From assembly GCA_045105515.1 (NCBI GenBank), contig JBGCDR010000137.1, forward strand, positions 1-12,361: a stretch of DNA of 12,361 nucleotides. Direction: 5' to 3'. Both the position numbers and the translations under genes were made by a program. The notes under the pieces are model-generated. The model worked only from the letters and a program-made list of their open reading frames with translations. It did no database searches and was not told where the DNA came from. Source of the stretch: Oligoflexales bacterium. Its GTDB lineage: Bacteria; Bdellovibrionota_B; Oligoflexia; Oligoflexales; Bog-1112. Below, piece after piece: positions 4,331-9,114 of the stretch (its first letter is position 1; each line of letters starts with the position of its first letter).

Positions 4331-5680
4331 ATGGAAAGAATTAGCAAGAAAAATAGATTTCGCTGCTTCATCGAAAATGATCGCGTAGCAGCTCATGGAA
4401 TAATGACTGATACTACGAATTTTTTTATGCTCGACGATCTTTTAGAAGAAACCTTAGAAATAAGCCTAAAGGATGTTGACAAAGCAAGTTGGATAGGTTT
4501 GGTGAATTTCTGTAAGTACCTCAACAACAAAAAAAAGAAATTTATACTTTTTGAGGTTCCTTATCGGATATTTAGGCATATGCGTTTGCTGACTAAATAT
4601 ATCCAAGAGCTGGATGTTAAAAGTATATATATTGATCTTTATCTGTTAGAGAACCTTGAACAAAAAGACTGTGATCGCTTAATTTCAAATATAGGTATAC
4701 AGGCGCTGAAGCAACAAGGGCCATGCTTAACTGGTGATTCGCGCAAGATGTTCATCCCAGAGCCTATTGAGTATCTGAATTTGGATTCTTGTAAAAAAGG
4801 GGTTAAGGTAAATTTTCATCCCGCGTTGAAGTGGACCAAGGAAGAGTTTGATGAACTAATTTTTTGGTACAAGTTACAAAAATTTACCGCCGAAACTATC
4901 GATCTAGTGCAAGATATGCATCGGACTCAAAATTTTCAGATCTTTAATTCTTTAGAAAAGATTAGACAGGTGATCATGAGTTTTGAGATGGTTTTTGATA
5001 CCCAAGAAAGTATCAAGACTAAAGAGTTCAAGGATTTTGAAAATTGGTTTTCTCGAGAGATGCTACAAATCTCAAATGTACTAAATAAAATTTACATAAA
5101 AAGTGATTTTGCAAGCAGGGTTATCTTTTTTCATTTGTTCTTCGACAAAGTGAAGATATCAAAATCTATACATCTAAAAATACTTGATTCTTCTTCTGAG
5201 ATTGTCGAATTTGTGCGAATAAGTTCCGCAGTTGAAGGTCTTGGGTCTAAAGGAACGAAACACTTTATAAAGATGGATTTATGCAAATATTTCCATGAAC
5301 TTTTGGATCAAGCTGCGAGTAATGGGATGCTTGAAAAAAAATATGAAGAAATAACAGATAAATTTAATATTCTTGACCTTACAGCGCAAGAAGAAAACTT
5401 CGACTTAAAAGTCTTCTTGAAGAAAGCTGTAGATAGCATAGATGATATTATGGTCGAAGAAATTGTGACGTATTTTCAGGGTTTTGACTTGCTAAATCAA
5501 GTTATTCACCATCGTTTTAACGAAGCAGAGTATGTAATTGATTGTATTGATAGAATTCAAGAAGGAAAAATGAAAACCGAAGATTTTCAGTCTAGTATAC
5601 TAAAAAGAATGCAAGAATCCTTAGTAACAGATCAAGAGAATAGTACCTTTAATTTTTTCTTTCCCACTGAATCAAGTTAG
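4331..5680 (+). CDS. Hypothetical cytoplasmic protein: STAS-like N-terminus, helical C-terminus with CheZ-like DxxxQ motif
   Basis: 449-aa ORF with no signal peptide. Residues ~15-105 follow the STAS-like pattern (ISLKDVDKASWIGLVNF...FILFEVP). Residues 377-392 read EIVTYFQGFDLLNQVI. The ORF is secure; the domain calls are tentative. Confidence 0.75.
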   Translation: MERISKKNRFRCFIENDRVAAHGIMTDTTNFFMLDDLLEETLEISLKDVDKASWIGLVNFCKYLNNKKKKFILFEVPYRIFRHMRLLTKYIQELDVKSIYIDLYLLENLEQKDCDRLISNIGIQALKQQGPCLTGDSRKMFIPEPIEYLNLDSCKKGVKVNFHPALKWTKEEFDELIFWYKLQKFTAETIDLVQDMHRTQNFQIFNSLEKIRQVIMSFEMVFDTQESIKTKEFKDFENWFSREMLQISNVLNKIYIKSDFASRVIFFHLFFDKVKISKSIHLKILDSSSEIVEFVRISSAVEGLGSKGTKHFIKMDLCKYFHELLDQAASNGMLEKKYEEITDKFNILDLTAQEENFDLKVFLKKAVDSIDDIMVEEIVTYFQGFDLLNQVIHHRFNEAEYVIDCIDRIQEGKMKTEDFQSSILKRMQESLVTDQENSTFNFFFPTESS

Positions 5681-7830
5681 TCTATTTTATAAATTTGGTT
5701 AAGTTTAAGCTCTAAAAAGACGTGATCTTGATTGTACTTTATTGAATTGAGTTCAGGACTTAAACTCAATTGGCTACCAATATATAGATCTGGAAGCGGG
5801 AAATGTAAATTAGTTAAAAAGTTCTTAATTTGAGTGTATGCAATATGTCTGACTACAGTTAATTTGGTTGCATGGGGAAGAAAAGTCCATAAGCTTATCA
5901 TTGATAGTATCTTATCTATAAATTTATCACTTTTTTTGGGTAGAAATGCCATATCGCTGCTGAGTTTATGAAACCGAAAATAAATTTCGCCATCAGTTTT
6001 TATATCAGGGACAAAGTGAAAGTCGATGCTCATACGGGTTGTATACCTTACTTTGTTTGATACTAATAGTGAAGCTGAAACTTCTTTGATTGAAATTAAA
6101 AATTTGCTGTTAACTGGATCCCATTTAATAATTGGAGCAGATTCGAATTTTATAATTAGATCGCGAGCATTTTCGATCAAAATATCTTTGTCTTTAAGGT
6201 CCAGCTGTATATTTTCAAACTGCTTACTTTCATGTAAATATGCCATATAACGATTAATAAATCTAATTGGAAGTATAAATCTAGCATGAAAATTATCTAG
6301 CGTATCATGCGATGACCTTAAATTTAAGTCTTCAAAGAATGAGGATAGCATCATTATGGAAGATAACATTGAGGTTGCATGACTTGATTTTTGAAAATAT
6401 ATGCAATGATCGCGAATTGCGTTTAGAAGGGATAAAACATATTCGCCAAAGTCCGAAGAAGAGTTTTGTTTTAGAGACTTGGCTATCTTGCGCCATTCAA
6501 CGTGGTAACTATGAAGTCCTTTAACTGCTTTCTCGCTTTTTGCACTAGGTATCATTTTTTTTGAATTCAATTTAATGTTCTTTAGGATATTGAGTAAACC
6601 ACCTATCACAAAATGCTCGTCTGCGGAGTATAATTTCCCATGCCTGACTATATCGCGAAAACCAGGTGGTTCAATGTCATTGCCCAAAAGAAATAAAGAC
6701 ATTGCATATGGGTGATTTGGCCTGTCAATTTCTTTCTCTTCATGCATTAGTTCTAGTTTTAAGAATGTGTTCCTTTTCGATTTTTCAAGGTTTTGATTGA
6801 CTTTAGATTGAATTGCAATGATTTCATCTCGAATTATGGATGGTATTTCGTTGCGATTTTCTTCTAAAAATTCAATAATTTCATTTAGAAAACAAATGAC
6901 ATAGTAGGAGTAAATCTGATTGTTTTCTAGGTGTTGAGCATATTTTTTTACATAACTATGAACATCTTGAATTTTCTTGGGTTCTAGCTCATCTTTTATC
7001 TCTATTAACATTGACCTTATTTTGTTTTGAACACGCTCATTGCTGGAAAAATCGATTTGTCCGCTAAGATCAATATTTGGTAAGTTTAGTGAGATAAATT
7101 TTTCTATAAAATATCGCAAAGATTTATTGCTGTTTAACTTAGTGCTGAGAGCTTCAGCAATTGCCGTGATTGCAAATTCATTGATTGATTTTTCTAGGAA
7201 TGTTCTTAGTAAATCTGAGTTCAGCAATGAGTCATCGAAATGATAGTCATTATTATCATTTCTAATGCTGAAAAAGAATGCATCTTCGTCAGTAAGGTTT
7301 ACGTAAGAATTTTCAGGATCTATTTCCAGCAAAGATTTATTGTTCTTTGTCGCATTCAGAGACATGCTTAAGTGAATCCATGAAAAGAGTTCATGATCAC
7401 TTTTTAGGCCAAAATTAACATTGAAATTTATGGGGATATTAAGATATTTTACGGTTAATAGGGCATTAACGCTTAACTTTTTTACTGGCAAGGAAATAAT
7501 ACAATTTCTTCTTAGGCATTTGACTTTAGTCTTGCTCAGTTCAATTTGATGTGCTCGAAGAGCTGAAAGATTGATTTCAGAGTCGGGAAAAATGCTCTTT
7601 TGGCTACTTCGAGAATAGAGAGGTATATCCTGCAAAGATAAGTTTCTTAGAACGCTGTTAATTTCATTTAAATTGCTGTTAAGATATTTTTCCACAAACA
7701 CAGCAAGACCGCTAGGGGATACTTGGATATTCCCAGCGAAGCCTAAGTGAAGGTTTTTTTTAGCATTTGCCAAAATGCTCGATGTGTAGAACGAGTATAA
7801 AAGTATCAATATAGCAAATTTATGAGTCAC
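5677..7830 (-). CDS. Exported protein, putative BPI/LBP/CETP (TULIP) superfamily lipid-binding protein with two inserted helical domains
   Basis: 717 aa with signal peptide (MTHKFAILILLYSFYTSSILANA). GTG start overlaps the upstream TGA (GTGA) with AAGGA upstream. Four colinear segments resemble BPI (see findings). Confidence 0.75.
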   Translation of the reverse strand: MTHKFAILILLYSFYTSSILANAKKNLHLGFAGNIQVSPSGLAVFVEKYLNSNLNEINSVLRNLSLQDIPLYSRSSQKSIFPDSEINLSALRAHQIELSKTKVKCLRRNCIISLPVKKLSVNALLTVKYLNIPINFNVNFGLKSDHELFSWIHLSMSLNATKNNKSLLEIDPENSYVNLTDEDAFFFSIRNDNNDYHFDDSLLNSDLLRTFLEKSINEFAITAIAEALSTKLNSNKSLRYFIEKFISLNLPNIDLSGQIDFSSNERVQNKIRSMLIEIKDELEPKKIQDVHSYVKKYAQHLENNQIYSYYVICFLNEIIEFLEENRNEIPSIIRDEIIAIQSKVNQNLEKSKRNTFLKLELMHEEKEIDRPNHPYAMSLFLLGNDIEPPGFRDIVRHGKLYSADEHFVIGGLLNILKNIKLNSKKMIPSAKSEKAVKGLHSYHVEWRKIAKSLKQNSSSDFGEYVLSLLNAIRDHCIYFQKSSHATSMLSSIMMLSSFFEDLNLRSSHDTLDNFHARFILPIRFINRYMAYLHESKQFENIQLDLKDKDILIENARDLIIKFESAPIIKWDPVNSKFLISIKEVSASLLVSNKVRYTTRMSIDFHFVPDIKTDGEIYFRFHKLSSDMAFLPKKSDKFIDKILSMISLWTFLPHATKLTVVRHIAYTQIKNFLTNLHFPLPDLYIGSQLSLSPELNSIKYNQDHVFLELKLNQIYKID
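6316..7050 (-). repeat. Diverged internal duplication of a ~90-105 aa helical domain (aa ~261-350 and ~401-505 of the 717-aa protein)
   Basis: FSSNE...HSY...A.HLENN...YVICFLNEI versus YSADE...HSY...A.SLKQN...YVLSLLNAI. The + strand 10-mer TAACTATGAA occurs at both HSY sites. Confidence 0.6.
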
Positions 7831-8351: not shown

Positions 8352-8367
8352 AAGTCATTCCTTTACA

Positions 8368-9114
8368 CTAGTTGAGTTCATTATTTTGCAATAAGTCCTT
8401 GATTCGGTCCTGACAATCAGTTGCCAATACCATAGAGTGTCCTTTTACTGAATCCACTCCCTTGCCGATAGCTTTAATAGTCCATTGCTCATTATTTTTG
8501 GAGATACTGAATAATATGACCGCTTGTTGGTCTTCTAGTACTAATGGATCATTAACACCACCAATGCTGTAGCGAGCAAGTTCTTGGGTGTAACCCGATG
8601 CGGTTTCAGCGAGGATGCGGCAAAAAGAATTGTTTATTGCTTGTAGTGATTGACCTGAATAACTAACGACTGTAGCTACCAAGTGAGAAATCTCTTTCTT
8701 ATGCTTATTAATACCACCTAAAAAAATGGATATGGCTTCATCATCACCTTCTCCCTCTCCTGTAACACTATCACCCGAATGAAATATGAGCCCATGCTTG
8801 TGTGAGCATATTTTTGTTTGGTATTTATGGTTGTCATGCCATATTATTTTACTTAAATGTCTATTTCTTTTTATTAAATGTAAGTTTAAATCCATATCAA
8901 TATAATCTGATTGCGACTCTGGATCCCAACCGAAGCCAATGACTATTTTGTTAATTCTTTTATCTATTTTAAAGGTCTCACCTGGAGCCAATGACCTAGA
9001 TGCGATCGACCCCAAGTAATCCTCAAGAGAATCTGCGGCTAAATTAATGCCAGCAGATAGGTTTGAAGTACCAAATAATAAAAACATTAATAAGATAAAA
9101 AGACGATCAAACAT
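8368..9114 (-). CDS. terD: TerD family protein with N-terminal signal peptide
   Basis: IGFGWD, DMDL, HSGDSVTGEGEGDDEAI, ELARY and WTIKAIG motifs. Start placed at ATG 9114 (MFDRLFILLMFLLFGTSNLSA), which gives a clean signal peptide; the frame is open to 9159. Confidence 0.9.
   Translation of the reverse strand: MFDRLFILLMFLLFGTSNLSAGINLAADSLEDYLGSIASRSLAPGETFKIDKRINKIVIGFGWDPESQSDYIDMDLNLHLIKRNRHLSKIIWHDNHKYQTKICSHKHGLIFHSGDSVTGEGEGDDEAISIFLGGINKHKKEISHLVATVVSYSGQSLQAINNSFCRILAETASGYTQELARYSIGGVNDPLVLEDQQAVILFSISKNNEQWTIKAIGKGVDSVKGHSMVLATDCQDRIKDLLQNNELN

Follow-up and report, generated by a model that had tools for sequence, protein, structure and literature searches.

We analyzed a 12,361-nucleotide stretch of DNA from an Oligoflexales bacterium (contig JBGCDR010000137.1 of assembly GCA_045105515.1), which we call the window and which is contig C137 of a genome of 6.3 Mb in 461 contigs. 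On its minus strand are three adjacent genes predicted to encode an exported TerD-domain protein, a small exported protein with 11-residue repeats, and an exported protein 717 amino acids (aa) long whose structural models resemble BPI-like proteins of the TULIP superfamily. The best explanation of these genes is a translationally coupled three-gene operon confined to one genus of Oligoflexales. We suggest that its products may form an exported module for binding or transferring lipids, of the same kind as TipA and TipB (Bd2538/Bd2539) from Bdellovibrio bacteriovorus HD100 (10.1101/2025.09.09.675085), with the TerD protein as a calcium-responsive accessory. We give this reading a probability of about 0.45 and offer it tentatively.

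The three open reading frames (ORFs) are co-directional, in the order TerD, small gene, 717-aa gene. The TerD gene (8368..9114, minus) is predicted to encode 248 aa and ends with a TAG at 8370-8368. It is followed by a 16-nt spacer (8352..8367, minus), in which an AAGGA Shine-Dalgarno sequence can be seen, and then by the ATG of the small gene at 8351. The small gene (7827..8351, minus) encodes 174 aa and ends with a TGA at 7829-7827 that overlaps the GTG start of the 717-aa gene (7830-7828) as GTGA; the 717-aa gene, taken from the ORF listing, occupies 5677..7830 (minus). Direct inspection of the sequence therefore bears out the arrangement described in the initial annotation, with three minus-strand genes, a 16-nt gap containing a ribosome-binding site, and a GTGA overlap. 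For comparison we used a metagenome-assembled genome (MAG) of a sister species, G001, that was found by a scan of genome contigs. In G001 the small gene's stop codon is 2 nt away from the GTG that starts the large gene. The first ORF had been listed as 8368..9159 (263 aa), whereas the ATG at 9114 gives 248 aa. The latter is almost certainly the true start, because the orthologs are 248 aa long in five of the six aligned sequences (242 aa in the sixth) and because the ATG at 9159 is out of frame in G001. Against G001, the ratios of nonsynonymous to synonymous change (pN/pS) were 0.20, 0.26, and 0.27 for the three genes with synonymous sites saturated, and all three are therefore real coding genes.

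All three proteins carry a signal peptide, as had been annotated. In each of them the sole 19-residue window with a mean Kyte-Doolittle hydropathy above 1.4 is N-terminal. Alignments of the TerD and 717-aa orthologs showed a variable hydrophobic leader with small residues at its end followed by a sharply conserved mature N-terminus, which is the signature of a cleaved signal peptide; in TerD the signal peptide covers approximately residues 1-21. The signal peptide of the small protein was judged by inspecting one sequence. Inspection of the sequences and their orthologs revealed no lipobox cysteine in any of the three proteins.

The TerD domain is firmly assigned. The protein matched Pfam TerD (PF02342) at 79.3 bits, far above the cut-off of 25.3 (E 3.2e-22, profile positions 4-177 of 187), and matched the solved TerD structures 3ibz (7.7e-13) and 2kxt (4.1e-11) in the Protein Data Bank (PDB). 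Its acidic loop, rich in Gly, Asp, and Glu, aligns residue by residue with both structures, and the loop core T-G-E-G-E-G-D-D-E is invariant in 6 of 6 TerD orthologs. The acidic loop of solved TerD proteins binds Ca2+. Judged by its sequence, the protein keeps the Ca2+-type loop of its family, and it may bind calcium. Family membership and the acidic loop are what it has in common with the TerD proteins of classical ter operons. It differs from them in having a signal peptide and a mature N-terminal extension of about 30 residues and in adjoining a TULIP-like gene, whereas classical TerD proteins are cytoplasmic. No genes of the terZABCDE type were found among the 10 window ORFs scanned, which is a trait of context that does not define the domain.

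The window's genome contains three more TerD-like genes. The one on contig C257 (L017:6679-7353, minus) encodes a leader, and its stop codon overlaps by one base the start of a gene for a 386-aa exported protein (5519-6679) that has a leader and a Ser-containing G-x-S-x-G-like motif and whose family was not recognized. Another, on contig C210 (L016:2940-3602, minus), precedes a gene for an 808-aa putative lipoprotein with Gly/Asn/Tyr repeats (234-2660). In a further genome of the class (G042, contig C27, L039:565-2169, minus), a 534-aa exported protein combines TerD with a C-terminal vWA-like region containing D-G-S-G-S. These arrangements hint that exported TerD proteins act as partners of various secreted proteins.

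The 717-aa protein gave nothing meaningful in Pfam, NCBIfam, PADLOC, or PHROGs, and a search of its own genome with PF01273 returned nothing over the cut-off. Weak matches of this protein or the small one to DUF445, DnaG HBD, ZorA, LeoA, and PDC-M38B were rejected as compositional because they fell on helical or coiled stretches. We describe its fold from models. The AlphaFold2 models had predicted local distance difference test (pLDDT) scores of 42.5 for the whole protein, with values of 55-67 within the N-terminal domain, and 45.3 for residues 500-717 modeled separately. With the whole model, all six of the PDB matches that Foldseek returned at E <= 0.001 were TULIP proteins (LBP twice, BPI twice, CETP, and Der p 7); E-values were 4.6e-5 for LBP, 1.1e-4 for BPI, and 3.3e-4 for CETP, and the alignments spanned both halves of the protein. 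Further rows included JHBP, Takeout, SPLUNC1, E-Syt2, Mmm1, and P47. Re-alignment with VIA gave Z 8.8 for LBP and Z 8.6 for BPI across both halves at a root-mean-square deviation (rmsd) of about 24. It gave Z 7.8 for Takeout, with 161 residues aligned over residues 40-220 at rmsd 4.7, and Z 7.7 for JHBP. Residues ~37-220 superpose on Takeout, JHBP, and Der f 7 with Z 7.5-7.8 over 154-164 residues. When 48,161 chains were searched independently of Foldseek, six of the top 50 rows covered residues 37-220 and all six were TULIPs; the other rows were generic helical matches to residues 255-357. The ESM Atlas has its own model of the protein, which aligns with BPI-family clusters over residues ~26-711 with TM-scores by query of 0.40-0.45, and the neighbors by language-model features include BPI-like clusters at 0.89-0.91.

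Three regions can be distinguished in the model. The first (~residues 27-245; 7096..7752, minus) consists of a conserved leading segment, helix A, a long twisted sheet, and helix B, and the predicted order of elements over residues ~39-245, helix, twisted antiparallel sheet, and helix, is that of a TULIP domain. The middle region (~residues 261-535; 6226..7050, minus) is mostly helical with a short beta hairpin at 356-382 and has generic helical matches only. The C-terminal region (~residues 536-717; 5680..6225, minus) is a putative second TULIP domain, with a modeled order of one helix, five strands, two helices, and two strands and a pattern at 513-710 that would fit such a domain. When the C-terminal model was searched alone, its top Foldseek rows were BPI (1.8e-3), SPLUNC1, P47, CETP, and LBP. 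An N-terminal TULIP domain is thus likely according to the models, and a BPI-like double TULIP is probable, with the second domain unproven. The BPI/CETP-like fold named in the initial annotation has reasonable support for the N-terminal domain, which matches the LBP, BPI, CETP, Takeout, and JHBP structures, and less well for the C-terminal domain with its best E-value of 1.8e-3.

The small protein has a Gly/Ser-rich middle that is moderately hydrophobic, below the level of a membrane span, and three Cys that are kept in G001. Toward its C-terminus are four 11-residue repeats (residues 108-151; 7899..8030, minus) with hydrophobic residues at their positions 1, 5, and 9. With a maximum of 1.59 at 98.2 degrees, as compared to 1.30 at 100 degrees and 0.03 at 110 degrees, the hydrophobic moment corresponds to an 11/3 periodicity. 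The G001 protein has six repeats; the two additional ones form a 22-residue (2 x 11) insertion, which is encoded by a 33-nt tandem repeat of 3.2 copies with 93% matches. The periodicity recorded in the initial annotation is therefore real. No family scored above any curated cut-off in Pfam, NCBIfam, PADLOC, or PHROGs.

On the basis of these repeats it had been proposed that the small protein, being like an apolipoprotein, coats a lipid particle or surface, that the CETP-like protein trades lipid with it, and that TerD is the partner that binds calcium. Apart from the periodicity itself, this idea can draw on a weak match to Pfam Apolipoprotein (PF01442; E 0.0071, residues 116-153). That match scored 16.5 bits against a cut-off of 90, there are only four repeat units (about 44 residues), roughly 3 of the 11 positions in a repeat are hydrophobic, the stripe is one residue wide, and the protein is acidic (net -8). 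The sister species moreover has a disrupted copy of the gene, and a search within 95-305 aa found no ortholog in other genomes. We conclude that the likeness to apolipoproteins is not supported and that a particle-coating role is very improbable. Because the stripe is narrow and the protein acidic, we read the helix as a coiled coil or docking helix and not as one that lies on a lipid surface.

We then consider how widely the genes occur and whether they stay together. The family of the large protein comprises five close sequences with 58-100% identity and one distant representative with 24% identity among 1.84 billion representatives. Within the class its profile matched at strong E-values in 2 of 131 genomes, namely that of the window and G001, each of which also has a weak paralog; Pfam TerD was found in 3 of the 131. 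The paralog in the window's genome, at C181:78228-80267 (L015:8226-10250, minus), is distant; it encodes 674 aa with a signal peptide and matches the profile with E 3.4e-7. It has the Cys-x4-Cys segment of the N-terminal domain in common with the family, and its G001 counterpart is on contig C673. Other family members lie on contigs of 71,122, 125,697, 8,092, and 27,073 bases. The five clusters of TerD orthologs pair one-to-one with the five close large-gene sequences, and 5 of 5 assemblies with the large gene also had TerD. In three of the pairs the longest contigs of the two genes are the same size (71122, 125697, and 8092 bases), so that TerD and the large gene are very likely located together on these contigs, as judged from contig size and not gene order.

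The locus is split in G001. One contig, C532, carries the M14 carboxypeptidase gene that also lies upstream of TerD in the window, followed by TerD, and ends 84 nt past the TerD stop. The other, C19, begins with the small gene from about residue 55, followed after the 2 nt by a 716-aa gene and then by the same downstream genes as in the window. The 84 nt at the end of C532 (L010:2045-2128) recur at at least 40 places in G001 and the first 61 nt of C19 (L003:1-61) at 26 places, in both cases mostly at contig ends. These multi-copy ends on both contigs lead us to conclude that in G001 an insertion sequence (IS) occupies the place of the spacer and of the small gene's first ~54 codons, and the small gene is therefore dispensable or was recently lost there. 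Synteny of all three genes had been suggested as a check on the operon; co-occurrence was seen for TerD and the large gene, but the unit of three genes is not kept throughout.

Other sources added little. Two scans of metagenome contigs found no relative, and the scan of genome contigs found the sister MAG only. Among contigs of two sequencing runs, no piece bridged the gene junctions. From a run labeled marine came 411 nt of the TerD gene, with 7 differences, and a short-read contig from the probable source run covers 8248-9300 only, ending inside the 5' part of the small gene. Since this end is close to the assembly break in G001, the region may be variable or repeated among strains. A complex prediction for the mature 717-aa and mature TerD proteins gave a score of 0.00 in a run without controls, which carries no weight either way.

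Several results weigh against a common lipid-handling module. Both structure models are poor, because the alignment of this tiny family is shallow. TM-scores to solved TULIPs are 0.14-0.25, Z values of 7-9 are in a range often reached by unrelated models, and the Atlas scores sit at that tool's lead-only level. The C-terminal model had no Foldseek match at E <= 0.001 and, in the Foldseek-independent search, nothing at Z >= 5 (P47 reached Z 3.3 at rank 37), and comparison of the N-terminal, middle, and C-terminal parts with one another by hhalign gave probabilities below 1%. In sequence searches, Pfam LBP_BPI_CETP, LBP_BPI_CETP_C, and DUF4403 had no match at E <= 10 in 6 of 6 family members, and a profile search of PDB sequences with the 717-aa family returned only E >= 0.22. 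The genetic evidence has its own counterpoints. Unlike in tipA-tipB, the gene for the sandwich here precedes that for the TULIP protein, and the two are separated by a third gene. Around the C181 paralog are genes for a PilZ protein, a family-5 solute-binding protein, and FabI but none for TerD. The TerD paralogs adjoin unrelated exported proteins, and TerD may therefore be a general accessory or a mere neighbor. In G001, where TerD and the large gene are intact, the small gene is broken, and a search for its orthologs elsewhere, within 95-305 aa, returned the query alone. Finally, co-location on the three contigs is read from equal sizes only, and the linkage, coming from one genus and its close kin, is about one independent observation.

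These points could be taken to mean that the three genes are neighbors without a common mechanism, so that their spacing reflects co-transcription only, TerD is an independent exported stress protein that binds calcium or metal, and the TULIP matches are artefacts of models with pLDDT 42-45. The C-terminal half has no fold assignment, and the TerD-vWA-like fusion shows that exported TerD occurs in other contexts. We keep this explanation in consideration because the models are poor and there is no sequence-level link to TULIP families. Against it, AlphaFold2 with Foldseek, the same AlphaFold2 model with VIA and no Foldseek prefilter, the ESM Atlas model, and the language-model features all agree on the superfamily. 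Moreover, TerD and the large gene occur together in all five of the assemblies with the large gene, and the start/stop coupling is kept in G001. On balance we regard a chance neighborhood as quite improbable.

If the lipid-binding module is real, it might work as follows. All three proteins would be exported by the Sec pathway. The 717-aa protein would take lipid or lipopolysaccharide (LPS)-like molecules into a hydrophobic tube at a membrane surface, and the membrane in question could be that of the bacterium's own envelope or of a prey or host cell. TerD would serve as an accessory beta-sandwich, as TipB does for TipA or C2 domains do for SMP-domain proteins, but would be calcium-responsive. 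The small protein would be the third component, varying between lineages and perhaps serving in oligomerisation or docking. A bolder version is that calcium at the membrane surface triggers TerD to dock onto the double-TULIP tube and open it, in trans, for lipid loading and unloading. We consider this calcium-switched version a long shot; if true, the TerD fold would gain a defined molecular role beyond tellurite resistance. More generally, the further exported TerD genes in this genome hint that TerD may be an adapter that senses calcium and can be reused with different secreted effectors. To our knowledge, the biochemical role of TerD has been unclear ever since tellurite-resistance operons were described, and the module, if it exists, would offer a testable function for a TerD domain. 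Its practical weight is limited, as it concerns one uncultured genus and a functional coupling that we infer.

The region upstream of the operon contains two promoter-like sites on the minus strand. The top-scoring site of the region (10/12) is TTGACA-N18-CATAGT at 9197..9226, with TTGACA at 9226-9221. The second candidate (9/12), TGGATA-N18-TAATAAT at 9158..9187, has a TG before the second hexamer as in an extended -10 element and is conserved in G001, where the ~95 nt directly upstream of the TerD start that include it are also well conserved. There were 18 promoter-like sites as compared to 18.1 +/- 4.4 in shuffled sequences, which is no enrichment, and the TTGACA hexamer is not conserved in G001. 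The TTGACA promoter candidate of the initial annotation is thus present and scores best, but neither the shuffles nor the sister species single it out. Between the stop codon of the neighboring M14 gene and the conserved TerD upstream region, at 9196-9252 (minus), there is an 11-bp AT-rich inverted repeat (A6CTATG / CATAGT6) with a loop of ~30 nt followed by a T run, and the TTGACA hexamer falls inside this stretch. The repeat, which a pattern scan did not pick up, might act as a weak terminator for M14.

The M14 gene (9280..10734, minus), the upstream neighbor of TerD, encodes an exported zinc carboxypeptidase (Pfam Peptidase_M14, 8.7e-70) that weakly resembles the murein tripeptide amidase MpaA. 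It is separated from the TerD start by 165 nt, adjoins TerD on G001 contig C532 as well, and is probably a separate transcription unit. On the other side of the operon and convergent with the large gene is a gene for a 449-aa protein whose family was not recognized (4331-5680, plus; 78% identity in G001). The stop codons of these two genes overlap (5677-5680), which leaves no room for a terminator between them. Further away, at 1160-2521 (plus), is a gene conserved in G001 for a Ser/Thr protein kinase of eukaryote-like type (Pkinase, 1.1e-24); the protein starts with a hydrophobic leader and has weak NCBIfam matches to the secreted effector kinases LegK1 and XopAU. At 10900-11472 (plus), divergent from the M14 gene, is a gene for a single-module PqiA-like membrane protein (PF04403, 1.1e-18).

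Two other explanations take up these neighbors and differ from each other in the membrane that the operon would act on. In one, the BPI-like protein is a factor for attacking prey or host, which binds LPS or outer-membrane lipids of another cell and permeabilises or strips its membrane, while TerD provides calcium-dependent docking to the divalent-cation-bridged outer leaflet. The exported carboxypeptidase and the signal-peptide-bearing kinase nearby would suit such a role, as would the slightly basic character of the mature 717-aa protein (net +5) and the fact that LBP and BPI, the LPS-binding members of their family, are its best full-length structural matches. TipA, as described, is itself secreted into prey and destabilises bilayers (10.1101/2025.09.09.675085). 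Weighed against these, there is no evidence that the organism is a predator or invader, no secretion-system gene appeared in scans of the window so that passage beyond the periplasm is only putative, and structural likeness cannot separate LPS from phospholipid cargo. We find an attack factor unlikely.

The second explanation is a housekeeping shuttle of the envelope, along the lines proposed for YceB and DUF4403, that would carry phospholipids of the cell itself, or cargo resembling lipoproteins, through the periplasm, with TerD and the small protein as stress or calcium-buffering companions. Sec signals without lipoboxes on all three proteins are what it would call for, the PqiA-like protein two genes away belongs to a family of lipid-transport subunits, and a role in the intermembrane space has been proposed for bacterial TULIPs (PMC6791001). 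A housekeeping function sits poorly with a distribution as narrow as 2 of 131 genomes, with five close and one distant sequence, and with a locus that an IS has disrupted in the sister species. As for the PqiA-like gene, its orientation is divergent and no MCE/PqiB partner for it was found in the window. A shuttle of this kind seems distinctly improbable to us.

We compared the operon with known systems, of which bacterial BPI-like lipid carriers are only starting to be characterised. Anti-phage defence, a phage origin, and a classical ter stress operon were dropped because nothing matched in their support and all three proteins have export signals. The secreted BPI/LBP/CETP proteins (PF01273 and PF02886; PDB 1bp1, 4m4d, and 2obd) were the best matches to the whole model of the 717-aa protein (Foldseek 4.6e-5 to 3.3e-4, Z 7.6-8.8). 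Sequence identity to them is approximately 8-11%, none of the family members has their Pfam domains, and the protein is 717 aa long rather than ~456 because of its helical insertion. Takeout, JHBP, and Der p 7 gave the best superpositions at the level of a domain (Z 7.5-7.8, rmsd 4.7-7, targets of 186-216 residues); these are arthropod hormone or ligand carriers of ~200 residues with no detectable sequence similarity to it.

DUF4403 (PF14356) has been described as a bacterial full-length homologue of BPI, found mostly in lipoproteins (Levine 2019, PMC6791001), and the resemblance here is to a bacterial, exported, pseudo-dimeric TULIP. An Atlas cluster from Bdellovibrionota that was automatically named DUF4403-family is among both the structure and the feature neighbors of the 717-aa protein. 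Unlike DUF4403 proteins, the members of its family have no match to that Pfam entry and the protein has no lipobox; DUF4403 was found in 0 of 61 genomes of the order, the window's genome included. Extended synaptotagmins and ERMES pair a tubular lipid-transfer domain with a calcium-binding beta-sandwich, and the SMP domain of E-Syt2 was among our weaker matches. Those domains are fused, cytosolic, and eukaryotic, with C2 tethering membranes, whereas here the proteins are separate, exported, and bacterial, making any functional analogy speculative. We think it doubtful that this TerD belongs to an exported system of two polypeptides analogous to the C2-plus-SMP machines, in which it would be a counterpart of TipB that depends on calcium.

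The initial annotation presented the locus as an undescribed system, a claim that has to be withdrawn in so far as an operon for a BPI-like double TULIP and a beta-sandwich protein has already been described in TipA/TipB. According to the description of that system, tipA and tipB overlap with tipB downstream, and TipA is a signal-peptide-bearing, divergent BPI-like double TULIP that had been mis-annotated by sequence. TipA is reported to be upregulated during invasion, to bind membranes, and to contain lipids in its lumen. Its partner TipB, a C2-like beta-sandwich, binds no calcium and no membranes but clamps the N-terminal domain of TipA and opens it. The same description notes TULIP homologues with added beta-rich or helical domains and contains no mention of TerD or Oligoflex (10.1101/2025.09.09.675085). 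Among the papers listed in a literature search linking TerD with TULIP, none was relevant by title, and searches for exported TerD gave nothing usable. Our comparison with TipA/TipB is by description; the PDB profile search returned no match to them.

By this comparison, both organisms belong to Bdellovibrio-like lineages, and both loci encode an exported BPI-like TULIP that is longer than eukaryotic BPI, has no TULIP Pfam match, and is coupled to the gene for a small beta-sandwich protein. In our operon the beta-sandwich is TerD, by homology, and the coupling runs through the small gene. The differences are that the sandwich here has an intact acidic loop of the Ca2+ type, C2-like TipB and TerD being different folds by description, and that the 717-aa protein has a helical middle region of ~270 residues. 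TipA/TipB is the sole case so far in which an accessory protein has been shown to open a TULIP tube. If our reading is true, the occurrence of a second, unrelated beta-sandwich, TerD, beside a divergent TULIP would suggest a recurrent sandwich-plus-tube design that can be placed under the control of calcium. TipA/TipB is the closest known system, and the locus is best read as a TerD-type version of the same design.

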